A stretch of 64,000 bases of DNA from Candidatus Woesearchaeota archaeon (GTDB taxonomy: Archaea > Nanobdellota > Nanobdellia > SCGC-AAA011-G17 > JACPIM01), in contig CAZELK010000002.1 of NCBI GenBank assembly GCA_964513145.1, forward strand, positions 65,113-129,112, written 5' to 3'. The position numbers and the translations under genes are program-made. Positions 47,364 through 63,625 of this stretch are shown in pieces; within the stretch, counting starts at the first letter, position 1, and each line of letters starts with the position of its first letter. The notes beneath the pieces are model-generated. The model saw nothing but the letters and a program-made list of their open reading frames with translations. It was not told where the DNA came from and did not search any database.

Positions 47364-47898
47364 ACTTATTAAAATCTTAAATGATAATGAAGGATTAAAC
47401 AATAAGATAAAGTTTTTTCTAAAAATAAAAAAATTAAGAAAACAAACTCTTAATGAGCAGGAACTGAGAGGACATATTGAAAAAGCAGAGCATAATCTTA
47501 ATTTTGTTAAAGATACTCTGGATAAAGAATATTCTGACTGGGCTATTGTTGGTTGTTATTATTCAATTTATCATATAGCTTTAGCACTTATTTTAATTAA
47601 AGGATATTACTCTAAAAATCATGATGCCACTTTATGTACTTTGATAAAAGAATATTATAAAAAAGAATTAACTGAAGAAGAAATTAAAATGTTGAATATT
47701 ATATATTTGGATAATGAAGATATTTTATTTTATGCTAATTCAAAAGACCAAAGAGAAAATGCCTCTTATTCAACTCAAATATCTTTTGACAAGAAATCTA
47801 TAGAAAGTTTAAGAGAGAAAACTTTATTATTCGTAAGAAAAGCTAATGATATAATTAATAAAAATACTGATTTTATTAATACGGGCTTAAATAAGTGA
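47350..47898 (+). CDS. HEPN domain protein (partner of upstream MNT)
   Basis: HIEKAEHNL, WAIVGCYYSIYH, SKNHDAT, QRENASY; start reassigned. Confidence 0.85.
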   Translation: MKENELIKILNDNEGLNNKIKFFLKIKKLRKQTLNEQELRGHIEKAEHNLNFVKDTLDKEYSDWAIVGCYYSIYHIALALILIKGYYSKNHDATLCTLIKEYYKKELTEEEIKMLNIIYLDNEDILFYANSKDQRENASYSTQISFDKKSIESLREKTLLFVRKANDIINKNTDFINTGLNK

Positions 47899-47951: not shown

Positions 47952-50900
47952 ATGAGACTATTAAAAGAGAAATCTATATCTATGATTTTTTTAATAATTA
48001 TTTCGACTATTTATTTCGGGTTGAATTTTCAAGATGTTGAATCGCAGAGAACTACTGGTCAAAATGCCTGCTGTGAAATAACTAAAAATGGCGAGTCTTG
48101 TGTTTATACTGACATTTCCCAATGTGATGTTACAAATGGACAAGCAAGCAGGTCGAGATGCGAAGACACTTCTTACTGCACTAATATTTGTTGTGTTGAC
48201 CAGGCTAACGGCTGTTTTCCAAATACACCAAAAGGGGCTTGCCAGAAACAACAAAATAGCATTAATAATGATGCTTCCTGCAAGTCTGTGAATGAATGTG
48301 CTTTGGGATGCTGTGTTGCCGGCAACCAGTATAGTTTTACTTCTGAAAATAACTGCAAAAATTTACTTAACACGATTTACGGAACTAATTATGATTTTTC
48401 TGATAAATTTAAGACTGCTGGAAGTGAGCAAGAGTGCTTAAAATTAAGTTTGAATGATAAAGAAGGCTGCTGTGTTGATAACTGCAAATATGGAATAAAA
48501 TCTTCATGTGGCGATGATTTTAAACTAGATACTAAATGCAGCTCTTTAAATAAGTGCAGTAATTGCAAGGAACGTTCTTATAAAGAGTGCAAGGATGGAA
48601 ATATTTACTGGTTTGATTCCTGCGGTAATCCTGAAGATTTAATTCAAAGTTGTGATTATTCACAAGGAAATTTATGTGCCAATGAAAATGGAAATGTTTA
48701 CTGCAGAAGTTTAGATTGTTCAACAACCAAAAAATATTCTGAATGGGATTATACTGGAAAATCCAGGCAACATGGGGAAAGCTGGTGTGTTTATGAAAGC
48801 CCAACTGGTAATTTTTTAGACAGGCCAGGAAGCATACAATATAGAAATAACTGTTTAAACAATGAAGAAGTAAGTGAAAGCTGTGGTGATTTTAGAAAAC
48901 AAGTTTGCGTACAAGCTAATTTTAATAATTCCGGGTTTTCTGAAGCTAGCTGTGTTAATAATAATATTTACAATTCTCCTGTAAACGCTAATATATCTAC
49001 AGTTCCTGTTGGATTTAAATTTTGGGAAGCAAATAAAAATAAGGATCAATGCAAAAAAGGATCAACAAAATGCACTGTTTATTATGCAAAAAAAGACAGA
49101 ATTTCTGACTGGGAATGCAAAGGAAATTGTTTTTGCGAGACTCAGGAATTTATAGATGAGGCAAATAATTACTGCAAAAGTTTTGGAGACTGTGGTTTTA
49201 ATTATAATACTTTAGGAAAAGAAGGAAGCGGCGGATTAAATGTTTACTGGACTGGTTCTGAAATTGGAGACAATCCAACAACTTTATCACAAGCTTATTT
49301 AGAAAGTTTGAAAAAATTTGGAATTTATGGTGGGATGAGTTTTTTAAGTACTGAAACTGAAAAAGTTATTCCAAGTTTAGATATTGATAATGAAGATATT
49401 TTCGAGGAAGTTTTGATTAGTGGGATTGTTGGTTATTCAATTTTTACGATTATTAATATTGCTTTTCTCTCTTTAGGTCAAGTAACTTTAGGGTTTTCTT
49501 TATTACTTCCACTTATTACTGGGGGTCTTATTGTAGCTCCAGGCGCAGGTGCATTGAGTGGTGGAATTTTTGTGACTGGTAGTGTTGGGGGTATTATTTT
49601 TGGTGTTATTGCTGTTGCTATTTTAATTACAACAGCTATTTTAGGTATACTTTCTAGCGGTGGCAGTGTAAAAGAGAAGACGATAAATATAGACTGCAGT
49701 CCTTGGCAGGCTCCTTTAGGTGGAAAGGATTGTGGGAAGTGCACAGAAGATTCTTCCAAGGAATGTACTGAATATAAATGCAGAAGTTTAGGTGCCAGCT
49801 GCAGATTAGTTAATACTGAAGCACAAGATTTGAGCAAAATAAAATGTGTAGATTCTAATCCAAATGATGTTGGTGCGCCAAAATTGAGTCCTTATGCTGA
49901 AGGATATAGTCCTGTAGTTGAAAGATTAGGGTATAGAGTTGAAAATGTTGAGCCATTGAAATTATTTAATTTCGGTGTTATTACTGATGAAGATGCAACT
50001 TGCAAATATGATTTTAAATTTTCTACAAAATATGATGAGATGCAATATCCATTAAGTGATTTTTTAGGAACAAAGCACAATATGACCTTAATTTTACAAG
50101 GAGGCAAGGAATTTAAGTATTATGTAAAATGCAGAGACATGAATGGAAATGCTGGAACAGATTATTTAATTACAATTAAAACAAAGAAAGAACCAGATAA
50201 ACAGGCACCAATAATAATCGATACAAGCATTAAAAATAATGGTGTAATACCAAGCAATCTTGAAGCAGTTCCTTTGGATTTAGTGCTGAATGAACCTGCA
50301 ACTTGCAAATATGATACAAAAGATAATAAAAAATATGAAGACATGAATAATTTGTCGCTTTGCAATGCCCAGTTTAGCTTAATTCCTACAGAATACAAAT
50401 GCACTACAGCCTTAACTGGCTTGAAGAAAGGAATCAATACTTTCTTTTTCAAATGCAGGGACTTAATGAATAATACTAATACTGGATCTATATTTAGCGT
50501 AATCAGAAGTGAATCTTTGAATATTACTATTGATCCTATTACTCCCAAGGATTCTGTAGTTTCAAATAATATTGTTTTAAGTTTAACAACTATTGGCGGA
50601 AGTGAACAAGGAAAGAGCATTTGCAAATACAGTGACAGGGATTTAGCTTATGAAGGGATGACTTTGTTTTTAACTACAGACAGTTCACATCATGTACAGC
50701 CCCAAACCAATCTAAAAAAAGGAAATTATAATTATTATGTTAAATGCAGGGATAATGCAGGGAATGAAGACAGCAAAAAGATTAATTTTAAAATTCTGGG
50801 TGAAAATGTTGGCAGTTCTGTAATTTATGTTTACAAGGATTCTTTTAATATAAATGTTGTTTTGAATGCAGAATCAAGTTGCGAATACAGTAATAAACAA

Positions 50901-51038
50901 TTCTCATTTGGGGCTGGGGAGAAAATGAGCGATGACAATACAGCTATGCATTCAGCACCTTTAGTTTATAATGAATATTATATCCAATGTAAAGATAGTG
51001 AAGGAAAAAACATTAATGGTTTGAGAGTATCAGTTTAA
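47952..51038 (+). CDS. Large Cys-rich exported protein, paralog 1
   Basis: Signal peptide ending QDVES|Q; many Cys modules; central Gly-rich hydrophobic block; C-terminal repeated beta-sandwich-like units. Confidence 0.85.
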   Translation: MRLLKEKSISMIFLIIISTIYFGLNFQDVESQRTTGQNACCEITKNGESCVYTDISQCDVTNGQASRSRCEDTSYCTNICCVDQANGCFPNTPKGACQKQQNSINNDASCKSVNECALGCCVAGNQYSFTSENNCKNLLNTIYGTNYDFSDKFKTAGSEQECLKLSLNDKEGCCVDNCKYGIKSSCGDDFKLDTKCSSLNKCSNCKERSYKECKDGNIYWFDSCGNPEDLIQSCDYSQGNLCANENGNVYCRSLDCSTTKKYSEWDYTGKSRQHGESWCVYESPTGNFLDRPGSIQYRNNCLNNEEVSESCGDFRKQVCVQANFNNSGFSEASCVNNNIYNSPVNANISTVPVGFKFWEANKNKDQCKKGSTKCTVYYAKKDRISDWECKGNCFCETQEFIDEANNYCKSFGDCGFNYNTLGKEGSGGLNVYWTGSEIGDNPTTLSQAYLESLKKFGIYGGMSFLSTETEKVIPSLDIDNEDIFEEVLISGIVGYSIFTIINIAFLSLGQVTLGFSLLLPLITGGLIVAPGAGALSGGIFVTGSVGGIIFGVIAVAILITTAILGILSSGGSVKEKTINIDCSPWQAPLGGKDCGKCTEDSSKECTEYKCRSLGASCRLVNTEAQDLSKIKCVDSNPNDVGAPKLSPYAEGYSPVVERLGYRVENVEPLKLFNFGVITDEDATCKYDFKFSTKYDEMQYPLSDFLGTKHNMTLILQGGKEFKYYVKCRDMNGNAGTDYLITIKTKKEPDKQAPIIIDTSIKNNGVIPSNLEAVPLDLVLNEPATCKYDTKDNKKYEDMNNLSLCNAQFSLIPTEYKCTTALTGLKKGINTFFFKCRDLMNNTNTGSIFSVIRSESLNITIDPITPKDSVVSNNIVLSLTTIGGSEQGKSICKYSDRDLAYEGMTLFLTTDSSHHVQPQTNLKKGNYNYYVKCRDNAGNEDSKKINFKILGENVGSSVIYVYKDSFNINVVLNAESSCEYSNKQFSFGAGEKMSDDNTAMHSAPLVYNEYYIQCKDSEGKNINGLRVSV

Positions 51039-51049
51039 TTTTGTGGAAT

Positions 51050-54000
51050 ATGTATAAATTTAAATTTTTTAAAAAAGAGGAAGCTGTTTTTATGATTTAC
51101 TTGATAGTTTCTTTAAGCTTAGTTTTTCAGATTTCCCAGGATGTTGAAGCACAATCGAATAATGTTTGCTGCGAATTAACCAAGCCTGGAGATTCTTGTG
51201 TTTATACTAGCAGAGACCAATGCAATACGCAAAATGGCAGGCAGATTAGTCCACTTAGATGTGAAGATTCTTTTTTTTGTGTTGATATCTGTTGTGTTGA
51301 CCAGAATAGCTGTTCACCAAATACACCAAAATCTTCTTGCCAGACCAGAACAAATACAAGAATTTTTAGTGACAATACTTGTTTGAGCGTAAGCCAATGC
51401 AATCTTGGTTGCTGTACTGTTGGAAATGATAAAAGATTTATCCAAGAAATTCAATGCAAGAATTTAGCTGACATTGTTTTGGGAAGTAATTATAATTTTG
51501 GTGATGTTTTTAAAAAAATTCCAATTAATGAATGTATTTTGCAATCACAAAATGAAAACGGATGCTGCATTAGCAATGGGATTTGCAGCTCTGGAAATGA
51601 ATTAACCTGTGCTGGAAATTTTAATTCTGGGAAAGAATGCAGTACTTTAAATGAATGCAGTAATTGTGAAAGACATTCTTACAAAGACTGCAGAGACGGG
51701 AATATTTACTGGTTTGATTCCTGTGGCAATACTGAAGATTTAGCTGAAACATGTAATTTTAATGATGGAAGTTTATGTGTTAAAGAAAATGATAATGCTT
51801 TTTGCAGAAATTTAGACTGTCCAAATACTAAAAAATATGAAGGGTGGGATTATACTGGAAAACCCAGAAAAAATGGAGAGAGCTGGTGTATTTATGACGG
51901 TCCAACTGGAAATTTTACAGACAGGCCAGGAAGCAGGCATTACAAAGCCAGTTGTTTAAATGGGGAAGAGATTGTAGAAAATTGCAGAGACTATAGGGAA
52001 CAAGTCTGTATACCACTTAATTATAAAGAAGGATTTTCACAAGCAGAATGTGTTAATAATAATATTTATGATTCTATAGTTAAAGTTGATATTTCAAGTG
52101 TGCCAACAGGTTTTAAGTTTTGGGAAACTGAACAAGATCTTAAAAATAAATGCAATAAAGGATCAAGATCCTGCACTGTAGTTTATCTTAAGGAAGACAG
52201 GTTTTCTGACTGGGAATGTGAAGGAAATTGTTTTTGCGAGACTCAGGGATTTATAGATGAAGCAAATAATTACTGCAAAAGTTTTGGAGACTGCGGTTTT
52301 AATTATAATACTTTAGGAAAAGAAGGAAGCGGCGGATTAAATGTTTACTGGACTGGAACAGAATTAGGAGACAGCCCAAACACTTTAAGCGAGAATTATC
52401 TTAATTTTTTAAAAAAATTTGGAATTTATGGGGGCATGAGATTTCTTGATGATGAATCCAAAAAAATAATAAATGCACCTGAAACAGAAGCAAACAAGTA
52501 TCTCCATGATATTTTGATTTTTGGACCTATAGCTGCTTCCGGATCTTATGCTGTTTTGAATTATCTGGCGACAGGATTTATACCGAACTTAATGGGTCTT
52601 ATTATAGGCAGTGCTCTCGGGGCTTCATTAGCACCTATATTTGGAGAAGATCCCCTTGAAGGAGCTTATGTTGGGGCAGCAGTTACAGCTGCCGGAGCAT
52701 CATCCTCTCTTAGTACTGCAGCTACTACGTCCAGTTATTTTGGGCCCCCTGGGTGGATAGTTGCTGCAATTCTCGCTATTGCTTCTCTTGCTTTATCTGT
52801 TGTTTACAGTGGCGGGGGTGTAAGAGAAAAAACAATTAATATAGACTGCAATCCATGGCAAGCTCCTTTAGGTGGAAGTAATTGTGGGAAATGCACAGAA
52901 GATTCTTCAAAAGAATGTACAGAATACAGGTGCAGAAGTCTGGGAATAAATTGCAGAATATCAGATGAATTTACTGATCATGTTCAATGTGTAAATATTA
53001 ATACTAATGACATTAATTCACCAAAAATATCTCCTTTACTTATACAAGATTATAGTTTAATAGAGGATAGACTGGGCTATAAAATAAAAGAACCAGTTGA
53101 TCCTTCCGAGCAACTTACTTTTGGAATTATTACTGATGAAGATGCAACTTGCAAATATGATTTTACTGTTTTTACAAAATATGAAGACATGAGATATAGT
53201 TTTGGAGATACTTTATTTAAGAAAGAACGCAATTTAACTTTGTTTTTAGAAGGAAATAAAGAATTTAATTATTATGTTAAATGCCAGGATACAAATGGGA
53301 ATATTGGACATGATTATTTAATTAATTTTAGAACTAAAAAAGAGATTGACAAACAAGCACCAATAATTATTGATACAAGCATTGAAAATAACGCAATTGT
53401 ACCAAATATTTTAGATAAGACTTTACTTGAATTAGAATTAAATGAGCCCAGTATCTGCAGATATGATGTAAAAGATAAAAAATATGATGAAATGACAAAT
53501 CAGGGAATCTGCAATAATGAGTTTAGTTCAGTTCCTGTCAAATATAATTGCAAATTAGCTTTAAACAATCTGAAAAAGGGAGCTAATGGTTATTATTTTA
53601 GATGCAGAGATTTCTTTAATAATACAAATCCACAATCTTACAAATTTAGCTTAATTAAAAGCGAGCCTTTAGTAATTACTGTAAATGATGTTACTCCAAA
53701 AGATTTTAGCTATCAGAATGATATTACTTTAAGCCTGACTACTTCTTTAGGAAGCAATCAAGGAATAAGTGTTTGCAAATTTAGTGAACAGAATTTACCT
53801 TTTGAAAGAATGATTGAATTTAAAAATACAAACGGCGTGAATCATTTACAATTACAGACTGACTTGAAAAAAGGAAATTACAATTATTATGTCAAATGCA
53901 GAGACAATGTTGGAAATGAAGACAGTGAAAAAATTAGTTTTAAAGTTGTTTTAGACGGCAAGAGAAAAGACATTGTTTCTTTTTATAAAGATGCCAATGC

Positions 54001-54190
54001 CCTGTATTTAATTTTAAATGTTGAGTCTAATTGTGAGTATAATAATAAAGATTTTATTTATGGTCAAGGAATTAAAATGGGCGGAGAAGATACGACGACA
54101 CATGTTGCACCATTAACTTTTAATGATTATTATATTAAATGCAAAGATAATGATTACAAGGATATTAAGGGAATTAAAATAAATGTTTAA
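51050..54190 (+). CDS. Large Cys-rich exported protein, paralog 2
   Basis: Same architecture (QDVEA|Q; GESWC.Y; CKSFGDCG; PWQAP.GG.C.KC). Confidence 0.85.
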   Translation: MYKFKFFKKEEAVFMIYLIVSLSLVFQISQDVEAQSNNVCCELTKPGDSCVYTSRDQCNTQNGRQISPLRCEDSFFCVDICCVDQNSCSPNTPKSSCQTRTNTRIFSDNTCLSVSQCNLGCCTVGNDKRFIQEIQCKNLADIVLGSNYNFGDVFKKIPINECILQSQNENGCCISNGICSSGNELTCAGNFNSGKECSTLNECSNCERHSYKDCRDGNIYWFDSCGNTEDLAETCNFNDGSLCVKENDNAFCRNLDCPNTKKYEGWDYTGKPRKNGESWCIYDGPTGNFTDRPGSRHYKASCLNGEEIVENCRDYREQVCIPLNYKEGFSQAECVNNNIYDSIVKVDISSVPTGFKFWETEQDLKNKCNKGSRSCTVVYLKEDRFSDWECEGNCFCETQGFIDEANNYCKSFGDCGFNYNTLGKEGSGGLNVYWTGTELGDSPNTLSENYLNFLKKFGIYGGMRFLDDESKKIINAPETEANKYLHDILIFGPIAASGSYAVLNYLATGFIPNLMGLIIGSALGASLAPIFGEDPLEGAYVGAAVTAAGASSSLSTAATTSSYFGPPGWIVAAILAIASLALSVVYSGGGVREKTINIDCNPWQAPLGGSNCGKCTEDSSKECTEYRCRSLGINCRISDEFTDHVQCVNINTNDINSPKISPLLIQDYSLIEDRLGYKIKEPVDPSEQLTFGIITDEDATCKYDFTVFTKYEDMRYSFGDTLFKKERNLTLFLEGNKEFNYYVKCQDTNGNIGHDYLINFRTKKEIDKQAPIIIDTSIENNAIVPNILDKTLLELELNEPSICRYDVKDKKYDEMTNQGICNNEFSSVPVKYNCKLALNNLKKGANGYYFRCRDFFNNTNPQSYKFSLIKSEPLVITVNDVTPKDFSYQNDITLSLTTSLGSNQGISVCKFSEQNLPFERMIEFKNTNGVNHLQLQTDLKKGNYNYYVKCRDNVGNEDSEKISFKVVLDGKRKDIVSFYKDANALYLILNVESNCEYNNKDFIYGQGIKMGGEDTTTHVAPLTFNDYYIKCKDNDYKDIKGIKINV

Positions 54191-54277
54191 TAAGCTTTTA
54201 AGAAAAGCTTAAGCAAAACTGGCAGTCTTTAAAAAAACTTAAGCAAAAACAAACTTTTTAAGAAAAATTTCAAAAAA
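54191..54277 (+). repeat. Cluster of one full and two degenerate hairpin-tail elements after Cys-rich paralog 2
   Basis: TAAGCTTTTAAGAAAAGCTTAAGCAAAACTGG (AAAAGCTTAAGCAAAACTGG identical to the copy at 8254) then ..AAAAAAACTTAAGCAAAAAC and AAACTTTTTAAGAAAAATTTCAAAAAA. Confidence 0.75.
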
Positions 54278-54343
54278 ATAAAGACAATATTTCTGCTGCT
54301 CACTAGTAATTGAAATTTTTGTGTATTAGTAATTAATATATCA

Positions 54344-54391
54344 TTCGATTGTAATCGAAAGCTTTATATAATTCATTCGATCATAATCTAG
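54344..54391. promoter_or_regulatory. Palindromic operator-like pair flanking TATA of first DUF4143 ATPase
   Basis: TTCGATTGTAATCGAA, TTTATATA, then TTCGATCATAATCTAG. Confidence 0.55.
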
Positions 54392-55665
54392 TGATGAAAG
54401 ACATATTATATGAATGGAACCCCTGGTGGTCAGGAAATTACACTTTTAAAGGCATTTCTAGAGAGAAAATTAAGGATATTATTCCATGGATAACAAGAAA
54501 AGAAATAATATCCATACTTGGAGTAAGAAGATCCGGAAAAACAACTATTTTATTTGAAATAATTGAGTTTTTAATAAATAACAAAACTAATTCTAAAAAT
54601 ATTTTATTTATTAAAGCAGATGATGATAGGATTAAGAAAGAAGAATTAATAGATCTGGCCTTAGATGAATATCAAAAATTAATTAATCCTGACTTGAATA
54701 TTTTTGTTTTTATTGATGAAATTCAAGAAATAAAAGATTGGCAAAAAACACTAAAAAGAATATATGATTTACACCCTGAATTTAAATTATTTATTACCGG
54801 ATCAAATGCTTCACTTTTAAAGGAAGAATTAGGTTCGTTTCTAGCTGGTAGATTTTCTTATTTTGAAATTTTTCCATTTAATTTCCGTGAATTTTTACAA
54901 GCAAATAAAGTATTATTAAAAAATGAAAAGGATATAATTAATAATAAAAATAAAATAAGAAATCTATTAATAGAATATGTTAGTTATGGTTCGTTTCCCG
55001 AAGTCTCGCTTGAAAAAGATGAGAAAATAAAAAAAGAATTAATAAACTTTTATTTTGATTCTATATTTTATAGGGACATATTAAAAAGAAAAGAAATAAG
55101 AAACACAGACAAACTGGATAAGTTGGCAAAATATTATTTACAAAATATATCCAGCTTTAGCAATTTTACAAAGGTAGCTAAATTACTAGAATTAACAACA
55201 GATAGTATAGTTGAATATACCAGGGCTTTAGAGGATGCTTATTTAATATTTTCTATAAATCTTTTTGAATTTTCTTATAAAAAACAAATAATAAACCCCA
55301 AAAAAATTTATTGTGTTGATACAGGAATTAGAAACATTGTCGGATTTAAATTTTCTGAAGATATTGGGAAATTATATGAAAATATAGTTTTTATTTTATT
55401 AAAACGAACTACAAAAGAGATTTATTACTGGAAGAATAAATATGAGTGCGATTTTATAGTTAAAAATGGAAAGAATTTAAGCGCAATACAAGTTTGTTAT
55501 GATATTAATAGTTCTAAGGAAAGGGAACTTAAGGGGATAATAGAAGCTCTAAGAGAATTTAAAATAAAAGAAGGGCTTATAATTACAGACAACTATGAAG
55601 CAGAAGAGAGATTAGAAGGTAAAATAATTAAGTTTATTCCTTTATGGAAATGGCTGTTAGATTAG
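54391..55665 (+). CDS. AAA_14 + DUF4143 ATPase (COG1373-like)
   Basis: GVRRSGKT, FIDEIQ, TGSNA, LAGR, KIYCVDTG, ECDF..IQVC. Confidence 0.9.
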   Translation: MMKDILYEWNPWWSGNYTFKGISREKIKDIIPWITRKEIISILGVRRSGKTTILFEIIEFLINNKTNSKNILFIKADDDRIKKEELIDLALDEYQKLINPDLNIFVFIDEIQEIKDWQKTLKRIYDLHPEFKLFITGSNASLLKEELGSFLAGRFSYFEIFPFNFREFLQANKVLLKNEKDIINNKNKIRNLLIEYVSYGSFPEVSLEKDEKIKKELINFYFDSIFYRDILKRKEIRNTDKLDKLAKYYLQNISSFSNFTKVAKLLELTTDSIVEYTRALEDAYLIFSINLFEFSYKKQIINPKKIYCVDTGIRNIVGFKFSEDIGKLYENIVFILLKRTTKEIYYWKNKYECDFIVKNGKNLSAIQVCYDINSSKERELKGIIEALREFKIKEGLIITDNYEAEERLEGKIIKFIPLWKWLLD

Positions 55666-55749
55666 TTTCTTAGAAGAAACTAATAAATATATATTAGTTT
55701 CCTATATGAAACGAAAATCTTATATATTAGTTCCTTTTAAGAAACTAAT
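55661..55749. promoter_or_regulatory. Three ATTAGTTTC-N6-GAAACTAAT palindromes upstream of second DUF4143 ATPase
   Basis: Sites at 55661-55684, 55693-55716, 55726-55749, spaced 32-33 bp. Confidence 0.65.
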
Positions 55750-55767
55750 AAGGTGAGGTTTACATAG

Positions 55768-57024
55768 ATGGATATCATAGAATTATTTAACCCGTGGTGG
55801 AAAGAGAACAAAATAAGCAAGGAATTAGCTTTAGATTATAGAAGAAAAATTTTTCCAGAAATCAAGAATTTAGTTAAATTAAGACAAATTCTTATTTTAT
55901 CCGGATTGAGAAGAGTAGGCAAAACCACAGCAATGTACCAATTAATGGAAGACTTGCTTAAAGAAGATATAAAACCAGACAAAATATTTTATTTTTCTTT
56001 TGATGAAAAAATTGAAAATTTATTAGATATTTTACAAAAATACAATGAATTAGTTAATGTTGATTGGAGAAAAGAAAAATGTTATTTATTTTTTGATGAA
56101 ATACAAAAATTAAGAGACTGGAGCAATAAATTAAAAATTATTTATGATGGCTACCCAAATTTGAAAATAATTATATCGGGATCAAGCAGTTTCGAATTAG
56201 AAAAAGAAGCTAAAGTAAATCTAGCTGGAAGACATTTTGTCATCGACGTTAAACCATTAGAATTTATTGAATATCTGGAATTAAAAAATATTAAAATAGA
56301 TTTAAATAAAAAAATTTATGATGAAGAAATAAAAAATGAATTTAAAAATTATTTAATAAAGCCTTTTCCTGAAATTGTAAATGTTAATGAACAAAGCATT
56401 ATAGCTAATTACATTAAGCAGAATGTTATTGAAAAAGTCTTAAAAATAGACTTGTCAAAAAGATTTAAGCATATTAATGAGGATCTTCTTGAAAGATTAA
56501 TTAATATTTGTTTTGATAAACCTGGTTTTTATATAAATTATGATGATCTTGCAAAAGAATTTATGATAAGCAAGAAAACTTTGATGCAACATTTTTATTA
56601 TTTGGAATTTGCTTATATAATAAGAAAAGTAAAAAATTACAGGGTTGGGGCAAGGGCTACATCAAGAAAATTACAAAGGGCTTATCCTTTTCATTGGTCT
56701 TTAAGATTTGGTTGGAATGGAAACATAGATTATGAAAGCGTAGTTTCTACGTTTTTAGATGCAAAGTATTACTGGAGAGAAAATGGGAAGGAAGTAGATT
56801 TTTTGCATTTTGACAAGAAAAACATTATTCCAATAGAGGTTAAAGAAGGAACTATTGGAAATAATGATTTAAAATCATTAATTTATTTTTTAACCAAATT
56901 TAATATTAAAAATGGGGTTGTTTTTTATAATGGAAAAGAGGAAGACTTTAAATATGATAAGATTACAATTAAAAAGATACCAATTTGGAAAATAATTGAT
57001 AAAACTAATATTTATAAATTTTAA
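55768..57024 (+). CDS. AAA_14 + DUF4143 ATPase (COG1373-like), second copy
   Basis: GLRRVGKT, FFDEIQ, SGSSS, LAGR, EVDF..PIEVK. Confidence 0.9.
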   Translation: MDIIELFNPWWKENKISKELALDYRRKIFPEIKNLVKLRQILILSGLRRVGKTTAMYQLMEDLLKEDIKPDKIFYFSFDEKIENLLDILQKYNELVNVDWRKEKCYLFFDEIQKLRDWSNKLKIIYDGYPNLKIIISGSSSFELEKEAKVNLAGRHFVIDVKPLEFIEYLELKNIKIDLNKKIYDEEIKNEFKNYLIKPFPEIVNVNEQSIIANYIKQNVIEKVLKIDLSKRFKHINEDLLERLINICFDKPGFYINYDDLAKEFMISKKTLMQHFYYLEFAYIIRKVKNYRVGARATSRKLQRAYPFHWSLRFGWNGNIDYESVVSTFLDAKYYWRENGKEVDFLHFDKKNIIPIEVKEGTIGNNDLKSLIYFLTKFNIKNGVVFYNGKEEDFKYDKITIKKIPIWKIIDKTNIYKF

Positions 57025-57040
57025 AAAGGAGTGAATATTT

Positions 57041-57826
57041 ATGAAAAAGAGAGGGCAGGTTTCTGTTTTTGCAATAGTTGGAGTTATAATTGTTGCCCTA
57101 GTTGTTTTATTTTTATTTGCAAGAAATAAAGTTTATATTGGCGGTGTAAGCTTAGAAAATCTTGAAAAAGAATTTCCACCAATTCAGTCGCATGTGGAAA
57201 ATTGCCTGCAGGAAGTTGGGGAAAAATACATCCCCTTTCTAGGAAAACAAGGAGGGTATTTAAATACAAACCCAGGAACATTTAGACAATATAAAGGAGA
57301 CAATATAAACTATTTATGCTACAATATCCAAGGAAAAGCTGAATGCAGCAACCGTGGATTAAGATTAAGTGATATTGAAAATTCTTTAGAAAAGGGCATG
57401 ATACAAGATATCAATAGATGCTTAGACATAGACCAATTTGATAAATTTGGATTAGATGTGAGCAGGAGTGAGGCAAGCTTAGATGTTGATGTTGGAGAGG
57501 ATAAAGTAATATTAAAAGCTAATTTACCTGTCAAGATCAGCAAGGGTGATGTAGAAGCAAGAAGGGATCAATTTGTTACAGAATTAAATTATCCTTTAGG
57601 AAGATTGTATAATAGTGTTAAGGATATAGTTGACAGCGAGGCTTTAAATGGAAATTTGGATACTTTAACTTATTCAGTTTTAAAAACAAGAACTACTGGA
57701 AAACCCTATATTGTTCAAAAATTGCAGCCTTATCCTGACAAGCTTTATATTTTAAAAATAAAAGATGTTCCTAGTGAGAAAAATGAATTTGTATTTCAGT
57801 TTTTTATCCAGGATGAACCTCTTTAA
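57041..57826 (+). CDS. Protein with class III (pilin/archaellin-type) signal peptide
   Basis: MKKRG|QVSVFAIVGVIIVALVVLFLF N-terminus. Confidence 0.75.
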   Translation: MKKRGQVSVFAIVGVIIVALVVLFLFARNKVYIGGVSLENLEKEFPPIQSHVENCLQEVGEKYIPFLGKQGGYLNTNPGTFRQYKGDNINYLCYNIQGKAECSNRGLRLSDIENSLEKGMIQDINRCLDIDQFDKFGLDVSRSEASLDVDVGEDKVILKANLPVKISKGDVEARRDQFVTELNYPLGRLYNSVKDIVDSEALNGNLDTLTYSVLKTRTTGKPYIVQKLQPYPDKLYILKIKDVPSEKNEFVFQFFIQDEPL

Positions 57827-57920
57827 CTTATTCTTTTATGTTTAATATTCATTTATAAACACTAAAGAAAGCTTTATAAGAACTTATTAAGAAAATGAAA
57901 AACTAAAGATTTAAATACTT

Positions 57921-57934
57921 CTATAGTACTATAG
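57921..57934. promoter_or_regulatory. 14-bp palindrome upstream of AbiEi-like antitoxin
   Basis: CTATAGTACTATAG just after TTTAAATA box. Confidence 0.45.
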
Positions 57935-57960
57935 TTATCAAGAAAGATAACTAAGGTAAA

Positions 57961-58677
57961 ATGAAAAGTATAAACTTAATAAAAGAACTACAAAAATATC
58001 CAATATTTAATTTAAAAATAATCAGGGATATTCTAAAAAAGAATGGAAATTACACAAAAATAGTTGTTTACAGGCTTAAAAAGAACGGGCTTATATTTGA
58101 AGTAGAAAAAGACAAGTATAGTGTCAACGAAAATGCCTTGATTGCGGCAAGTTTTATCACTTGGCCTTCTTATGTTTCCGGGTGGGCTGGATTAAGATTC
58201 TATAATTTAACAGAACAATTGCCACAAACAATCAATGTTATTACAACGAGACAAAGAAAAAACAAAAAGGTCACGTTTAAAAACGTGAAAATAGAATTTA
58301 CAAAAATAAAACCAAGCTTGTTTTTTGGATATAAAAAAGAAAGGTATCTTGATTTTGACATTTTTTTAGGAGAGAAAGAAAAAATATTAATTGACTGCGC
58401 ATTATTTAAACTGATTTCTTTTTCAGAGATTCATGAAATAATATCATTGAATATTGAAGAGATTAACATAGACAAACTTATTGATTTTTTAAAACGAATA
58501 AAAAATAAAACTCTTATCAAGAGATTTGGATATTTGCTTGATAAATTAAATATAGACAAACATAATATCTTAAAAAAATTTGTTGATCCTAAATATGTGA
58601 TTTTAGATTATTTTCTGCCAAATAAAGGCTTAAAAAATAAAAAATGGAAGGTTATTGAAAATGCAAAACTTGAATGA
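57961..58677 (+). CDS. AbiEi-like type IV TA antitoxin
   Basis: N-terminal wHTH; PSYVSGWAGLRFYNLTEQLP; EKILID. Confidence 0.8.
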   Translation: MKSINLIKELQKYPIFNLKIIRDILKKNGNYTKIVVYRLKKNGLIFEVEKDKYSVNENALIAASFITWPSYVSGWAGLRFYNLTEQLPQTINVITTRQRKNKKVTFKNVKIEFTKIKPSLFFGYKKERYLDFDIFLGEKEKILIDCALFKLISFSEIHEIISLNIEEINIDKLIDFLKRIKNKTLIKRFGYLLDKLNIDKHNILKKFVDPKYVILDYFLPNKGLKNKKWKVIENAKLE

Positions 58678-59428
58678 ATTAAATGAAATTGCAAAATTGA
58701 AAAATTTATCCCCGATAAATGCAGAAAAAGATTATTTGCAGGATTTAATTTTATTTAGCATTTATGGCAAATTAGGCAGAGAACTGGTTTTTAAGGGTGG
58801 CACGTGCTTATACAAAATTTACAAATTAAACAGATTTTCTGAAGACTTAGACTTTACACTTAATCAAAATATAGATATTGAAAAACTTGGAAGCCAAATA
58901 ATTTCAAATTTAAGCTTGTTAAATATAAAATCCAAAATAAAGGAAATAAAAGATTATAGAAATGAAACTAACATCAAGTTATTAATAAACGGTCCGATGT
59001 ACAATGGCAGCAAGGAAACCCAGTGCTTTATACCCCTGAATATCAGCAAAAAAGAAAAGATTATTGAGGAGCCCAATAAATCAAATATATTTTCCTTTTA
59101 CAATGAAATTCCAAATTTTCAAATCTTTTCCATGAAGGAAGAAGAGATTTTAGCTGAAAAGATCAGAGCTATATTTACAAGAATGAAAGCAAGAGATATT
59201 TATGATGCGTGGTTTTTGCTTAAAATAAAAAAAATTAATTTTGATTCTGAACTGGTAAATAAAAAATTAGAGTTATATTCATTAAAATTTGATAAAAAGA
59301 TTTTAATTGGGAGAATCAACAGCATGAGTAAACTCTGGTCAGCAGATCTGAAAAATTTGATTTTTAATGAATTACCTGATTTTGAAATTGTAAAAAAAGA
59401 AATATTCAGCATTTTCAGCAAGATTTAA
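58661..59428 (+). CDS. AbiEii-family nucleotidyltransferase toxin
   Basis: AEKDYLQ, VFKGGT, RFSEDLDF, AEKIRA, RDIYD. Confidence 0.9.
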   Translation: MQNLNELNEIAKLKNLSPINAEKDYLQDLILFSIYGKLGRELVFKGGTCLYKIYKLNRFSEDLDFTLNQNIDIEKLGSQIISNLSLLNIKSKIKEIKDYRNETNIKLLINGPMYNGSKETQCFIPLNISKKEKIIEEPNKSNIFSFYNEIPNFQIFSMKEEEILAEKIRAIFTRMKARDIYDAWFLLKIKKINFDSELVNKKLELYSLKFDKKILIGRINSMSKLWSADLKNLIFNELPDFEIVKKEIFSIFSKI

Positions 59429-59488
59429 CAAAACTTAATATTTATATAGATAATATTTTTAATAAATAGCATAGGAACTGTTTTAAGA

Positions 59489-59550
59489 AAAGCCTTTAGA
59501 ATATTTGAAAGCTTAAGCAAAATAACTTTTTAAATAAAAAGTTGACAAAA
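59489..59550 (+). repeat. Two degenerate hairpin-tail elements between abiEii and Cys-rich paralog 3
   Basis: AAAGCCTTT..GAAAGCTTAAGCAAAA and AACTTTTTAAATAAAAAGTTGACAAAA. Confidence 0.6.
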
Positions 59551-59593
59551 ACTATAAAAATAATTTACTGAAAAATTTAATATTAAAAAAGAG

Positions 59594-62500
59594 ATGGAAT
59601 TTAGATTTATTAAAGAAAAAGCATGGTTTATGGCGTTTATTTTAATTTGTTCTACAATTTATTTTGGATTGAACTTTCAAGATGTAGAAGCGCAGCAAAG
59701 AAGAAGCTCTTCTAGTTCTGCAGGACAAAAAGCGTGCTGTGAAGTTACAAAGTCAGGAGATTCCTGTGTTTATACAGAAAAAAATGAATGCAATACTAAT
59801 TTTAAGACTTCTTTAACAACTTGTGAGAATACAAATTATTGCAGTTTGGGAACCTGCATTTATGACAAAGAGGGAGAATGTTTTAGCAATACTCCAAAAT
59901 CTTTGTGCGAAAAAAATAATGGAGTCTGGAGCAGTGAATTTATTGAAGAAATTCCACAATGCAAAAGAGGTTGCTGCCAGATAAGCAATCAATGCAGTTT
60001 TGTTACACAAACAAAATGCAAGGCAGAGACTTCGAAATTTCCATTTGTCAATACTATTTTTGACAAGAATATAGACAATGAAGTACAGTGCATAGATAAA
60101 TGCAGGAGTGAAGAAAAAGGGGCTTGTGTTTCTGAAGATGGAAGCTGTGTATTTGCAACAAGAACATCATGTATAGAAAAAGGCGATGATGATACTGCAA
60201 GCCTGAATAAAACTATTTTGAAAACTGGTTTTCATCCAAATGTACTTTGCAGCAATCCTTTACTTGGAAGTAATTGTGCAAGACAACAAAAAACCGGATG
60301 CTTTGATGAAAAAGTTTACTGGTTGGATTCATGCGGAAATCCTGAAAATGTTTATGACAGCAATAAAGATTCTTCTTATAATAAGGGTTTTATTTTATCT
60401 TCAGACAAAAGCTGCAAATTGAATGGAGCAAATGATCCAAATTGCGGAAACTGCAATTATGCACAAGGAAATTTATGCGGCAAATCTCCTTCAAATGTTG
60501 ACATGAAATTTGGAGATTATAGCTGCAATGATTTAAGCTGCAAAACAACGACTGAAAATATTGCAAGCCCAGATTCCAAAGGAGAAAAAGAAACTGGAGA
60601 AAGCTGGTGCTTATATGATGCAAGAGTTGGTTTTGGACAGGATGTTGTTGGAAGCAGACATTACAGGTCTTTATGTTTAAATGGAGAAGAAGTTATTGAA
60701 CCTTGCAAAGATTACAGGGAGGAAATCTGTATTCAAGGAACTTCTGGGGCAATAAATAATTTTAATTTAGGACAAGCTTTTAATGTTGGTGACGGCTACT
60801 TGGAAGCTGCATGTAGGACTAACAGATATAAAGAATGTAATTCCTGCAATCAAATTGGTGGTGAGTGTGGTGGGGTGTGCAATAATTTACAAGGTGCTGA
60901 AAAAGTAGCTTGCTGCAGACAAACCTGCTGTAATAATATTGAAAATAAAGACTGTTATTATGTTCCTGCTGGAATAACTGATTTTGGCGGAATGTGTGTT
61001 CCTACAGTTCCTCCTGGTTTAAGATTCTGGGAGACTGGTGAAAAAGGCGGTGGAAGCAAGGAAGGTACACAAACAGGGGCACAATCTGTTTGCAATGAAG
61101 GAAATGTTGCCTGTGATGTAAAATTTGTTCGCGGAGGAACTGCCAGAATTGGTATTGGGGGTTTGGGAACTGAAACAGACTGGACTTGCATAAAAAATTG
61201 CCATTGTCTGGAAAAAGAATGGGTAGTTGCTGCAGCAACACAGTGCAAGGCTCGAGGTGATTGCGGAGCCAAGTATAATATTAAAGGTGTTTTTAGTTCG
61301 GGAGGAATTAGCGAAGATACTGATTTTGTTTTAACACAAAAAGATTTTGAAGACTGGAGTACGATTTCAAGACAGAGCTTAAGAAAAGATGATCCAACAA
61401 ATTTAGGTGCTTTTTTTGAAAGAACCTGGCCAGCTTTTTTAATTATTTTTGGAACTGGATTAGCTGCTGGAATAATTAGTGCAGCAGTTCCAGGAGCTGT
61501 TGCTGGGACATTTGTTAGTGCTTTAGGTTCTGGTTTAACGTTAGCGCCAAAATCAGTTCTTTCTTTTTTTCCCAAGGTATCAAGCACTCCACAAAGTGTT
61601 TATGGCGAAGCTTTTAGATCTGCAAAACAATTAAGCTCTTTTGATTTACAAAGTTTGGGATATTCTCCGTCTGATGCTACAAGGTACGTAAGAGAAGGAG
61701 CAGAACTTGTTTATCAAAAGACTGGTTCTGAAGCGCAATGGGTTTTAAGAAATGCTAAAGGGCAGGTGTTTATAGATCCGGTTACTAAATCACCTGATAC
61801 TGTTCCAGATGCTAAGGTGGCTGAACTTGTAGATGTAAGCGGGGGTGCATTTGGAGACTTTGCTGTTGTAGCACTTGAAGTTATAACTATTTTAGCCTGG
61901 TTATATACTATATATAGTCTGACTGATATTTTGTTTAAGGAAAGTAAGACTGAAACTTTTAGTGTTACCTGCAATGCATGGGAAGCTCCAAAAGGAGGAG
62001 AAGACTGCGAGAAATGCAATGAAAAAGGAAAAACCTGCAGTGAGTATAGATGCAGAAGCTTAGGAAGATTATGCAGACTAATTAATGAAGGAACTGAAGA
62101 AGAAAAGTGTGTTGCACAAACACCTTTGGATGTAACTTCACCTATAATAAATGCTATTAAACCAAAGAATTTACAAATTGATGAAAAGAAAAATCAAGGA
62201 TATATTGTTACAACTTTAATTAAACCTTTTACACCAGTTGAATTAGGAATATCAACTGACGAACCAAGCAGATGCAAATTTGATACTAATATTTCTGTTA
62301 AATATGAGAACATGAGATTTGATTTTGGAGACAATTTATTCAGATACAATCATACAATGTTGTTTTCACTGCCATCTGAATTACAACAAGAACAGGCTTT
62401 GAAGTTAACTAATGGAGGAAAATATAATATTTATGCAAGATGCAAAGACAATAATGACAATGCAAACAATAAAGATTATTATATAAGATTTGAAATTGAC

Positions 62501-63382
62501 AAAGGTCCTGATTTAACTGCACCAAAAATTGAATTGACATCAATTAAAAACAATGGGTTTGTAAGCAGCGAGTTAAATGAATTGGGCTTGGATATTTTTG
62601 TAAATGAGCCCAGTGAATGCAAGTGGGATACTAAAGATGTAGACTTTGAATTAATGGGTCAGAGATTTATATGCCCAACTTCAGGGACACAAGTTACACC
62701 TATAAATCAAGGATTGTACAGATGTGGGGCTTTATTGAAAGAATTAAAGAAGGGAAAAAATACTTTTTACTTTAGATGCAAAGACAAGCCTACACAAACT
62801 AATGACAGAAATGTCAATAAGGAAGGATATAAATTTGATGTAACAAGAACAGAAAAATTGGTAATTAATAATATACAGCCAAGGGGAAGGGTATTTTTAT
62901 CAAATCCAAAAATTGTAGTCAAGACATCTAGCGGAGCTGAAAATGGGGTAAGTGTATGCGGCTTGAGCACAAATAAAAATGCTCAGATTTCAAATATACC
63001 TTTATTTTTGAATACAAATTCAACAGAACATGTACAACAATTGAGAAATTTAAGAAGGGGTGCTTATAATTATTATATTACTTGTGTTGACAAGGCTGGA
63101 AATATTGAAAAAGGAGATGTACAATTTGAAATTATATCTGATGCAACAACCCAGCCAGTAATAAGCCAGGTTTACAAGGATGTAAGCAACAATGTTTTGG
63201 TTGTCAGAACAAATGAAGATTCAAGCTGCCAATGGGACAACAAGCAGTTTAGTTTTGGAGACGGAATTGCAATGACAGATCCTAACACGAAGAGCCATCA
63301 GACTTTGTTATCCAACAATTATTACTTCATAATCTGCAAAGACATATTTAACAACGAAGAGACAGCAACAGTTTATCCATAA
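59594..63382 (+). CDS. Large Cys-rich exported protein, paralog 3 (1262 aa)
   Basis: Same architecture; central hydrophobic block split by an ~89 aa Cys-free insert. Confidence 0.85.
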   Translation: MEFRFIKEKAWFMAFILICSTIYFGLNFQDVEAQQRRSSSSSAGQKACCEVTKSGDSCVYTEKNECNTNFKTSLTTCENTNYCSLGTCIYDKEGECFSNTPKSLCEKNNGVWSSEFIEEIPQCKRGCCQISNQCSFVTQTKCKAETSKFPFVNTIFDKNIDNEVQCIDKCRSEEKGACVSEDGSCVFATRTSCIEKGDDDTASLNKTILKTGFHPNVLCSNPLLGSNCARQQKTGCFDEKVYWLDSCGNPENVYDSNKDSSYNKGFILSSDKSCKLNGANDPNCGNCNYAQGNLCGKSPSNVDMKFGDYSCNDLSCKTTTENIASPDSKGEKETGESWCLYDARVGFGQDVVGSRHYRSLCLNGEEVIEPCKDYREEICIQGTSGAINNFNLGQAFNVGDGYLEAACRTNRYKECNSCNQIGGECGGVCNNLQGAEKVACCRQTCCNNIENKDCYYVPAGITDFGGMCVPTVPPGLRFWETGEKGGGSKEGTQTGAQSVCNEGNVACDVKFVRGGTARIGIGGLGTETDWTCIKNCHCLEKEWVVAAATQCKARGDCGAKYNIKGVFSSGGISEDTDFVLTQKDFEDWSTISRQSLRKDDPTNLGAFFERTWPAFLIIFGTGLAAGIISAAVPGAVAGTFVSALGSGLTLAPKSVLSFFPKVSSTPQSVYGEAFRSAKQLSSFDLQSLGYSPSDATRYVREGAELVYQKTGSEAQWVLRNAKGQVFIDPVTKSPDTVPDAKVAELVDVSGGAFGDFAVVALEVITILAWLYTIYSLTDILFKESKTETFSVTCNAWEAPKGGEDCEKCNEKGKTCSEYRCRSLGRLCRLINEGTEEEKCVAQTPLDVTSPIINAIKPKNLQIDEKKNQGYIVTTLIKPFTPVELGISTDEPSRCKFDTNISVKYENMRFDFGDNLFRYNHTMLFSLPSELQQEQALKLTNGGKYNIYARCKDNNDNANNKDYYIRFEIDKGPDLTAPKIELTSIKNNGFVSSELNELGLDIFVNEPSECKWDTKDVDFELMGQRFICPTSGTQVTPINQGLYRCGALLKELKKGKNTFYFRCKDKPTQTNDRNVNKEGYKFDVTRTEKLVINNIQPRGRVFLSNPKIVVKTSSGAENGVSVCGLSTNKNAQISNIPLFLNTNSTEHVQQLRNLRRGAYNYYITCVDKAGNIEKGDVQFEIISDATTQPVISQVYKDVSNNVLVVRTNEDSSCQWDNKQFSFGDGIAMTDPNTKSHQTLLSNNYYFIICKDIFNNEETATVYP

Positions 63383-63444
63383 GGATTGTACCCTTACAAC
63401 CTGCTTGAGAAAAGCCTTAAAATAACTTTAGTAACTAATTATTT

Positions 63445-63625
63445 TTAAAATTTTCTCACTAAATCTTTGGTAGATTTTTTTCTTAAATTATAAATATCTT
63501 CTTTTATTTTTCTTGCTTCTTTATCACTAGTATTTTTCCAGGCACCAGCAAAATCCATAATGTTCTTATTCTTTTTTGTTTTTCTTCTTATTACACTAGA
63601 AAAACTTTCTCTTTTACGCTTATTT
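63445..63625 (-). pseudogene. Remnant of VapB-like/DUF217 RHH antitoxin (N-terminus replaced, no partner toxin)
   Basis: RESFSSVIRR...IMDFAGAW...EARKIKEDI pattern; upstream in-frame sequence does not resemble the family N-terminus. Confidence 0.5.

Follow-up and report, generated by a model that had tools for sequence, protein, structure and literature searches.

The window, by which we mean the whole 64,000-nucleotide stretch of DNA that was analysed, carries three genes for giant, Cys-rich exported proteins, two of a short type side by side and one of a long type further along the same strand.

47952-51038, + strand: short-type giant 1 (P0001), 1028 aa, from the ORF translation
47952-48044, + strand: giant 1 signal peptide, aa 1-31
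48063-48551, + strand: giant 1 four CC-repeat modules, aa 38-200
48564-49271, + strand: giant 1 conserved core, aa 205-440
49398-49670, + strand: giant 1 hydrophobic insertion, aa 483-573
49671-49871, + strand: giant 1 Cys knot, aa 574-640
49872-51035, + strand: giant 1 four Ig-like domains, aa 641-1028
51050-54190, + strand: short-type giant 2 (P0002/P0006), 1046 aa from ATG, or 1049 aa from TTG at 51041
52511-52825, + strand: giant 2 hydrophobic insertion, aa 491-595
59594-63382, + strand: long-type giant (P0003, gene 3), 1262 aa
61424-61936, + strand: long-type giant variable middle, aa 611-781 (hydrophobic 611-645, Cys-free loop 646-747, hydrophobic 748-781)

Translation confirms the three paralogous open reading frames (1028, 1046/1049 and 1262 aa) of the original prediction. 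In pairwise comparison gene 2 is 54% and gene 3 40% identical to gene 1. Giant 2 is a tandem duplicate of giant 1 that is absent from genomes of the same genus, and the long-type giant follows the short-type plan with extra Cys-rich inserts in the core. Exactly three copies of the family are carried by the 978-kb genome.

Architecture and distribution of the giants

The shared plan is largely the one first described. Each giant has a Sec signal peptide (ending in FQDVES, SQDVEA and FQDVEA, each before Q), and the N-terminal Cys repeats resolve into four CC-repeat modules per giant. The motifs GNIYWFDSCG, GESWC.Y, C.C...A...CK..GDCG, GS.HY..C.N.EE..E.C.D.R..C and C..W(Q/E)AP.GG..C.KC...C.EY.CRSLG occur in all three giants, mostly without variation, and are invariant or nearly so across 64-110 family members. 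The hydrophobic middle, in which 19-residue Kyte-Doolittle means peak at 2.0-2.8, lies where it had been placed in all three giants and is their least alignable part. The C-terminal units that had been likened to beta-sandwiches are four Ig-like domains (AlphaFold, Foldseek). A C-terminal anchor is absent, as expected, with no hydrophobic segment C-terminal of the knot in the three giants and none in the C-terminal region of the family (0/203 members).

The AlphaFold model of full-length giant 1 has a mean pLDDT of 82.5, with around 90 in the Ig-like domains and low values only at aa 25-36 and 490-554. For aa 196-645, the core and knot are predicted to form one compact domain (pTM 0.76), with pLDDT above 90 on either side of the hydrophobic block and below 50 inside it, where the model places a low-confidence helical insertion. 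The block had been proposed to be clamped in a Cys-rich scaffold, and it is indeed predicted to be inserted between the two halves of this single domain. The compact core has zero matches among PDB, viral (BFVD) or named-Atlas structures. Foldseek searches with both giant models return Ig/FN3 strings only, these being the sole matches of the Ig-like domains, or nothing. The three giants have zero Pfam matches above threshold; the C-terminal domains come closest to Big_13, which scores 22.1 bits where 27 is required, and DUF4625 also falls short of its gathering score.

The giants are a large unannotated DPANN family of Woesearchaeota/Pacearchaeota type (Nanobdellota). All 126 full-length homologues are labelled 'hypothetical', and homologues carry the names Woesearchaeota or Nanoarchaeota, consistent with the DPANN origin first suggested. 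The family comprises about 2,400 clusters at 50% identity (2,402 at E<=1e-3 in 1.84 billion representatives). Of 401 genomes sampled from the phylum, 107 carry it. In the order to which the window belongs it is near-universal, at 2-4 matches per genome; the exception is one family of that order, with giants in 0/12 genomes.

The gene cluster and a predicted pilin-like partner

The giants belong to a cluster with a conserved order: short giant, KRGQ pilin-like partner, long giant, four further pilin-like proteins and an S-layer gene. This synteny is seen at eight or more loci (L007, L008, L009, L010, L023 and three close genomes). In the genome under study a part of the cluster lies at each of two contig ends, and the end of contig C9 continues it with K(K/R)G(Q/V) proteins of 165, 289, 178 and 151 aa, the small proteins there beginning KRGQL, NKKGV, YKKGQV and NKKGQV, and also holds a 781-aa S_layer_C protein (E 1.8e-9). 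The operon with its five class-III-signal proteins and S-layer gene, and the docking predicted within it, had gone unremarked in the original prediction. Three further features lie in the window.

57041-57826, + strand: pilin-like partner, 261 aa (MKKRG start before Q, synteny, complex prediction)
57961-59428, + strand: AbiEi-like/AbiEii toxin-antitoxin pair (Pfam AbiEii, E 6.8e-28)
60662-60730, + strand: predicted partner-binding hairpin of the long-type giant, aa 357-379 (complex prediction)

In other genomes the partner lies directly upstream of the long-type giant, with a stop/start overlap in L008 and L023. Here the toxin-antitoxin pair separates the two; it is missing from that position in L007, L008, L010 and L023, and is an insertion outside the giant/pilin system.

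The N-terminus of the partner, MKKRG followed by QVSVFAIVGVIIVALVVLFLF, consists of a short basic stretch to Gly and then about 22 hydrophobic residues, and the remainder, a globular domain of roughly 220 aa, contains a PYPDK motif and 4 conserved Cys. The M.KRGQ start is conserved; among 49 homologues, at least 90% have Q6. All five small proteins have the look of a class III (prepilin-type) signal, with a basic N-terminus to Gly and then a hydrophobic helix. The KRGQ signal of the partner fits the pattern of M. maripaludis pilins, in which the signal ends in Gly with Gln at +1 (PMC3875500). From these signals we infer that the five would be processed as prepilins; a Peptidase_A24 gene lies elsewhere in the genome (G000:C5:62471-62851, E 7e-17). 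The five have no pilin-family match at E<=5 (Pfam, NCBIfam). The cluster holds no pilus ATPase, TadC or EppA gene and no linked major pilin, and T2SSE signatures occur only elsewhere in the genome.

The partner is predicted to dock on the conserved core of the giants. The complex has an ipSAE of 0.76 (runs 0.72-0.78, best control 0.00), which expresses model confidence with unpaired alignments and is a prediction rather than a measurement; the ipSAE mark is reached by 58/80 solved complexes and 2/110 mismatched pairs. Runs agree on at least 92% of contacts, and the partner has a pLDDT of at least 82. The predicted interface coincides with the blocks that are most conserved in the giants and are retained in genes 1 and 2 as well. 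Pilus adhesins of the PilY1/PilC or DUF2341 type are encoded with minor pilins and bound by them; here synteny shows the co-encoding, and binding is predicted by the complex.

Related arrangements are known. Clade 1 ('system 1', Epd-type) type IV pilus loci of Methanococcales, Methanobacteriales and Thermococcales encode at least five class-III-signal proteins and two large Sec-secreted predicted adhesins, and an S-layer-like gene frequently lies close by (Makarova et al. 2016, PMC4858521), and the Epd pilins of M. maripaludis are of this type (PMC3875500). The giants' cluster likewise combines several class-III-signal proteins, large Sec-secreted proteins and a nearby S-layer gene, and its short signals end in Gly with Gln at +1, as K(K/R)G before Q. 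Unlike the large Epd-type proteins, which carry DUF2341, the three giants have no Pfam match at E<=1 to DUF2341 or to the PilY1 beta-propeller (Neisseria_PilC). The small proteins match no pilin model, the cluster lacks the ATPase, TadC and EppA, and the internal hydrophobic insertion has no counterpart in Epd-type loci. The type IVa module FimU-PilVWX(E) with PilY1/PilC (roughly 1,100 aa) also pairs a large Sec-exported non-pilin with four or five co-encoded minor pilins, which carry it, and docking of the giant on a pilin-like protein is likewise predicted here. The giants have neither beta-propeller nor vWA domain; they are rich in Cys, end in four Ig-like domains and contain a hydrophobic hairpin internally. 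The two systems also differ in phylogenetic domain and signal type.

The cluster could also be read as a filament in which the hairpin mimics pilin helices, is extracted with the five pilin-like proteins and packs in the core of a short fibre, with the giant as tip cap. Conserved co-encoding with the five class-III-signal proteins and the predicted docking on one of them suit this arrangement, as do small-residue-rich helices capable of tight packing. Minor pilins with PilY1 offer a precedent, and so do the two large proteins and at least 5 minor pilins of archaeal clade 1 (Epd) loci (PMC4858521). The block nevertheless ranges from 0 to more than 300 aa among members and varies in helix number, which is too variable for defined packing, and the cluster has neither an assembly ATPase nor a major pilin linked to it. 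Such integration is unlikely.

Alternatively, the giants and pilin-like proteins may be pillars that tie the S-layer to the membrane, comparable in function to SlaB beneath SlaA or to the Sulfolobus bindosome, with no direct role in host contact. The S-layer gene is constantly adjacent; 2-4 copies, near-universally, in genomes of 0.5-1.7 Mb suggest a housekeeping role; and in the AlphaFold model a membrane-proximal core with Ig arms of roughly 16 nm would span the pseudoperiplasm. Class-III-signal proteins can form non-pilus envelope assemblies, such as the bindosome (cited in PMC3875500). Both the bindosome, made of prepilin-type proteins that form no classical pili, and Sulfolobales SlaB, which is beta-sandwich-rich and membrane-anchored, are envelope assemblies next to the S-layer or beneath it. 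No relation to either was detected in sequence or fold, and SlaB has its anchor in a C-terminal helix, while that of the giants would be internal and variable. Against a scaffold, short-type giants evolve much faster than their neighbours (46-52% identity within the genus vs 69-72% for the permease and partner) and show mosaic recombination, a combination more typical of exposed interaction proteins. The giant-free family of the order is a further objection, and we regard a purely structural role as doubtful.

Variability of the hydrophobic block

The block is 19-27% identical between genes 1 and 2, vs 90% just before and after it. Even close orthologues do not conserve it: in two pairs it is 40% identical against 92-96% in the flanks, and 24% against 95%. 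Omega is about 0.6-1.5 in the block vs 0.1-0.3 in the flanks, and recombination and conversion signatures lie at the block's edges. One tract shared by genes 1 and 2 stands out, with nucleotide identity of 0.91-0.93 and pS of 0.22-0.24, vs a pS of 0.5-0.85 elsewhere.

49095-49274, + strand: gene-conversion-like tract of genes 1 and 2, aa 382-441, just upstream of the variable block

A TM-grade block occurs in 84% of 203 members, and 80% have one that ends at most 15 aa from the closing Cys. In about 16% it is missing or below TM grade. P0015 is one of these, and an orthologue with 75% identity to it has the hairpin. Between the hydrophobic blocks the loops hold few charged residues (K+R 2.8%, D+E 4.8%) and are not K/R-rich like usual cytoplasmic turns, so the hairpin is not a textbook one. 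By a crude estimate the helix number is often odd, which would place the Cys-rich C-terminal half inside the cell.

The original prediction saw in the block a diversified polymorphic module. Its extreme variability and recombination signatures agree with this, but relaxed constraint would explain an omega of about 1 just as well as diversifying selection would. As judged from sequence comparison, the block's evolution is near-neutral, with indels and recombination. A diversity-generating retroelement was considered because the genome has one elsewhere; a BLAST search of the whole 978-kb genome with both variable blocks has no match apart from the blocks themselves, and thus no near-identical template repeat, and the block was rejected as its target.

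DPANN cells are mostly host-attached symbionts, and to our knowledge their contact and attachment factors are largely unknown, which leaves room for a device that inserts into the host membrane. A shielded block would enter the partner membrane as a fusion element, or as a GxxxG/glycine-zipper pore, and would diversify to match hosts. The block is Gly/Ala-rich, charge-poor, rich in small-xxx-small motifs and not a K/R-flanked hairpin, and gene 2 has a weak Gly-zipper_Omp match (Pfam, E 0.79). The extreme divergence with recombination signatures, the lack of any other anchor, and the short Trp/Tyr/Gly-rich amphipathic stretch that is all some members carry, P0053 and P0015 among them, are in keeping with such a device. 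Excess non-synonymous SNPs in hypothetical surface proteins of Nanoarchaeota (PMC6142677) point the same way. The pore, translocon or fusogen originally envisaged is not borne out by structure, with zero fold matches in PDB or BFVD to any fusogen or pore former. An exhaustive structure search (VIA) ranks archaeal Fsx1 (7p4l_A) first, at a Z of 3.9 (rmsd 4.6 A, 57 residues) that lies below the aligner's usual noise, and the class II three-domain fold was not found for either giant model (Foldseek). Fsx1/HAP2-type class II fusogens do share with the giants a large Cys-containing ectodomain and hydrophobic membrane-interacting elements; unlike them, the giants have no C-terminal TM anchor (three genes, 203 members). 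It would be odd for a functional business end to fall short of TM grade in about 16% of members and to be present in only one of two 75%-identical orthologues. Omega is not above neutral expectation, and the conserved, hence selected, surfaces are the core and Ig domains. An insertion device is unlikely, and the variable middle is more suggestive of a membrane anchor under loose constraint than of a proven fusion or pore device.

Proposed surface display and host contact

The explanation that we favour, as having slightly better than an even chance, is that the giants are surface proteins of adhesin type that dock on a pilin-like partner and have a variable hairpin as membrane anchor. They would be exported through the Sec signal peptide as disulfide-rich surface proteins, and the conserved blocks of the core would serve as docking face for the pilin-like partner. 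If the core blocks dock the partner, the giants would be displayed on a type-IV-pilin-like base or fibre, by analogy with the way in which minor pilins carry adhesins of the PilY1 type. The Gly/Ala-rich block, inserted in a loop of the core, would most simply anchor the protein in the archaeon's own membrane as a helical hairpin of 2-4 helices. If only its greasiness is constrained, then near-neutral drift, gain and loss of segments and shuffling by recombination would follow, and the block may be dispensable where the pilin partner provides anchorage.

We infer the membrane topology of the giants and an adhesion or host-contact function, and a surface or host-contact role is plausible. In a more far-reaching version, a giant on a pilin-like stalk beside the S-layer would drive its charge-poor, glycine-zipper-rich, hypervariable block into the membrane of the host archaeon and open a cytoplasmic bridge or nutrient conduit, with recombining alleles setting host range. 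This is improbable, but if true, the bridge or conduit would be the route by which Woesearchaeota-type DPANN archaea feed.

Architecture of the giant proteins

Three genes in the window encode giant Cys-rich paralogues, two of a short type (genes 1 and 2) and one of a long type (gene 3). All three open reading frames of the original prediction were located, with every motif listed for them, and they are the only copies in a 978 kb genome that is 98.8% complete.

Giant genes of the window, all on the same strand
47952-51038: giant gene 1, 1028 aa
51041/51050-54190: giant gene 2, 1049 aa from a TTG start or 1046 aa from an ATG start
59594-63382: giant gene 3, 1262 aa

The two other giants are 54% and 40% identical to gene 1. 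Each protein contains 58-69 Cys residues, nearly all kept across the family. By a Kyte-Doolittle scan, each of the three giants has a signal-type segment at its N-terminus and a single hydrophobic region in the centre (aa 483-573 in gene 1, aa 491-595 in gene 2, aa 611-645 and 748-781 in gene 3), with no hydrophobic segment at the C-terminus, in line with the lack of an anchor noted in the original prediction. The giant genes have a GC content of 0.32-0.38 (window 48001-54000 and 60001-62000) against 0.24-0.27 around them; the most likely cause is the base composition of Gly/Ala/Cys-rich coding, not foreign DNA, since related genomes hold orthologues at the same place.

An AlphaFold2 model of the whole of gene 1, built on a 64-sequence alignment, has a mean pLDDT of 82.5, with low confidence confined to the signal-peptide junction and aa 490-554. 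The fragment aa 196-645 is modelled with a pTM of 0.76 and a pLDDT >90 on either side of the hydrophobic block, so that a conserved Cys-rich core (aa 205-440) and a closing Cys knot (aa 574-640) form one compact predicted domain; in the model, the block is a helical insertion within it. Four CC-repeat modules of ∼40 residues each (CC at aa 40, 80, 120 and 173) precede the core, and the knot is followed by four Ig-like domains that each contain a pair of conserved Cys residues.

Against Pfam and NCBIfam, the giants gave only Ig-like matches below threshold and a PorU fragment match, rejected as spurious; a PDB sequence-profile search gave no match. Foldseek against the PDB returned only strings of Ig/FN3 domains for the full gene 1 model. 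For the core model, no known fold was found in the PDB by Foldseek (best E 0.1), among 48,161 chains by a wide VIA-align search (best Z 3.9) or in the BFVD viral structures (best E 0.058). The best VIA-align row was Fsx1, with Z 3.9 over 57 residues, well under the usual noise of the aligner. Shape searches of the ESM Atlas with the core returned Nanobdellota/DPANN hypotheticals only (TM 0.42), and feature searches returned the family itself or nothing named. As modelled, the core fold matches nothing solved.

Divergence of the hydrophobic block

The original prediction was of a clamped, hypervariable insertion that either anchors the protein or enters a partner membrane in the manner of a pore or fusogen. 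The clamped and variable hydrophobic insertion is real: in close orthologues the block is 24-40% identical against 92-96% in the flanks (40% against 92-96% for P0107/P0108, 24% against 95% for P0060/P0062). P0015, 75% identical overall to P0008, has lost ∼70 residues, TM-grade segments included. Across 203 representatives, the block is under 100 to about 490 residues long, contains at least one TM-grade segment in 84% and none in 16%, is free of Cys in 73% and ends at most 15 residues from the closing Cys in 80%. The loops between its hydrophobic segments are so poor in charge (K+R 2.8%) that the positive-inside rule gives no topology. For long giants of the same genus, omega is 0.6-1.5 in the block and 0.1-0.3 elsewhere; as the central alignment is poor and dS near saturation, a block value around 1 fits neutral drift as well as the diversifying selection that had been proposed.

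The simplest role for the block would be to anchor the giant, as a helical hairpin of even helix number, in the membrane of the cell itself; both halves of the giant would lie outside the cell, because both are disulfide-rich. Hydrophobicity may be the sole constraint on such a hairpin, which would lead to near-neutral drift, indels and occasional loss of the block. The block could instead insert into a host membrane, which we consider improbable. Fusexins have a C-terminal anchor and the giants have none, and no class II fold was detected in the giants. The original prediction is thus supported in part: its pore or fusogen function is unsupported.

The orthologous long giants L023 3001-6720 and L007 10001-13726, from two genomes, form a mosaic, with a dS of 0.05-0.3 over aa 121-360 and 772-1191 (core, Ig) and >1 over aa 1-120 and 421-711 (N-terminus, middle block), and P0071 and P0079 have a common N-terminus (96%) but not a common core. 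Such sequence patterns point to recombination between alleles or paralogues. A conversion-like tract between genes 1 and 2 lies at the block edge (49095-49274; nucleotide identity 0.91-0.93, pS 0.22); together with the L023/L007 mosaic, it suggests that recombination shuffles these modules. The block as a DGR target was rejected, the genome having no template copy. Within the genus, identity is 46-52% for short giants and 65% for long giants, against 69-72% for the pilin-like partner described below and a neighbouring permease.

A surface-gene cluster with pilin-like proteins

In loci L008 and L010 of other genomes, the gene order is short giant, a protein of ∼250-268 aa, long giant, four small proteins (about 165, 330, 180 and 140 aa) and an S-layer gene. 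L009, L022 and L023 are arranged similarly, and L007 has two pairs of a 249-aa protein and a long giant. The 261-aa partner protein of the window (57041-57826, forward strand) is the small protein that precedes the long giant elsewhere (E 1e-23 to the L007 copies). The window ends at the contig end; the reverse strand at the end of contig C9 carries the four downstream small genes, together with one for an S_layer_C protein of 781 aa. The entire cluster is contiguous in two same-genus genomes (G097 and G142), so the two contig ends are neighbours. Same-genus genomes have a ∼160-aa pilin-like gene directly after the long giant, and the short giant is duplicated in the window's genome alone.

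The cluster is dotted with mobile defence or toxin-antitoxin modules, and L026, in genome G060, carries small inserts of a similar sort in the same intergenic gaps. Small antitoxin-like ORFs flank the contig break (window 63383-64000 and L016 10563-10898, the C9 end): on C9 an AbrB/SpoVT-like fragment, and at 63445-63720 a basic ORF of 91 aa.

Modules inserted around the giant genes
43532-44666 and 46764-47898: two nucleotidyltransferase/HEPN-type pairs, upstream of the giants
54391-57024: two AAA_14/DUF4143 ATPases, after giant 2 and before the partner
57961-59428: AbiEi/AbiEii pair, separating the partner from the long giant

A secreted protein of 748 aa, rich in Cys (35985-38231, forward strand), has a weak S_layer_C match (E 0.0015) and is near-identical in stretches (NLP.PFVSKEGV..., TVEGKKVTLQNVGSSGA.LVDV.G) to the 781-aa protein of C9 (L016 4896-7241); its sequence suggests that it is a second paralogue of the S-layer protein.

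The partner family comprises 140 homologues, which start with M.KRGQ and ∼22 hydrophobic residues, the Gln being kept in at least 90%. The other four small proteins start with KRGQL, NKKGV, YKKGQV and NKKGQV. Pilins of Methanococcus maripaludis have a class III signal of 5-13 residues with a Gly end and Gln at +1 (PMC3875500), the same pattern as in the five small proteins. Curated pilin models match none of the five, so it is by this motif that they look like prepilins. A Peptidase_A24 prepilin peptidase is encoded in the genome. T2SSE-type secretion ATPase signatures (C14:2408-2731 and C6:65426-67315) fall within open frames of unusual length (1265 and 2013 aa), which may be intein-containing or fused genes, and are candidates for the motor that assembles the pilin-like proteins. 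A sixth KRGQ-type protein is encoded outside the cluster (649 aa; L012 247-2196, reverse strand, C7:48424-50373): its long extension comes after ∼217 residues that start with MTKRGQ and a hydrophobic helix and are homologous to the partner (E 6e-20). A search for a fused partner-giant form among longer partner relatives gave one protein of this kind, P0372 (704 aa), without similarity to the giants; a fusion was thus not reproduced for this partner family, which is only weak evidence against one.

Predicted docking and the reading of the family

The long giant (aa 190-852) and the partner, modelled with custom unpaired alignments, are predicted to form a complex with an ipSAE of 0.76 (runs 0.72, 0.76 and 0.78; best of three controls 0.00). 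Of 80 solved complexes 58 attained this mark, as did 2 of 110 mismatched pairs. At least 92% of contacts are common to the runs, with a partner pLDDT of at least 82. The model supports, but does not show, binding. The predicted interface involves the partner's residues 82-86, 207-232 and C-terminus, up to the first residues of its PYPDK motif, and the family's most conserved blocks in the giant (C.D, Y..G.LC, GES, L.LNGEE.V.EPC.DY.EE and SEY), which would give a reason for the existence of those blocks. Genes 1 and 2 retain most of the predicted interface residues.

The whole cluster resembles type IV filament modules of minor pilins and a large adhesin. The bacterial counterpart is FimU-PilVWX with PilY1, whose propeller the giants lack. 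In archaeal clade 1/Epd loci, two large DUF2341 proteins occur together with five or more class-III-signal proteins (PMC4858521); the giants are without DUF2341. Our best reading, somewhat better than even, is an adhesin-type surface complex that docks on a pilin-like protein and has a membrane-anchor hairpin under loose constraint, in which the anchored core would sit beside the N-terminal helix of the partner. The S-layer gene at the end of the cluster would also suit giants that act as S-layer scaffolding, an unlikely reading. Integration of the block into a fibre core appears improbable.

A word-indexed search found 126 full-length relatives of 950-1500 aa, all 126 annotated ‘hypothetical’ and the named ones from Woesearchaeota or Nanoarchaeota MAGs. 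Run against 1.84 billion representatives, a core profile matches 2,402 clusters (50% identity), with E<=1e-10 in 1,991 cases. The copy-number survey that had been proposed gives usually 2-4 matches per genome, close together, in 107 of 401 genomes sampled in the phylum; within the window's order the family is near-universal, except for one taxonomic family (0/12), as it is in another taxonomic family of the class. Literature searches found no paper that describes the giant family or operon.

DPANN archaea of the Woesearchaeota/Pacearchaeota type are abundant, uncultured and probably host-dependent, and to our knowledge none of their attachment or contact factors has been identified. The giants belong to an unannotated protein family of ∼2,400 clusters, whose core fold is unlike anything solved. 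Genomes of 0.5-1.7 Mb devote about 1-2% of their length to the cluster, which is nearly universal across a whole order and adjoins an S-layer gene; the giants are the fastest-evolving large surface proteins of the neighbourhood and their partner is well conserved. These features make them testable targets for cell attachment: the partner-core interface, the Ig arms and the variable hairpin are where to ask how such cells hold others.
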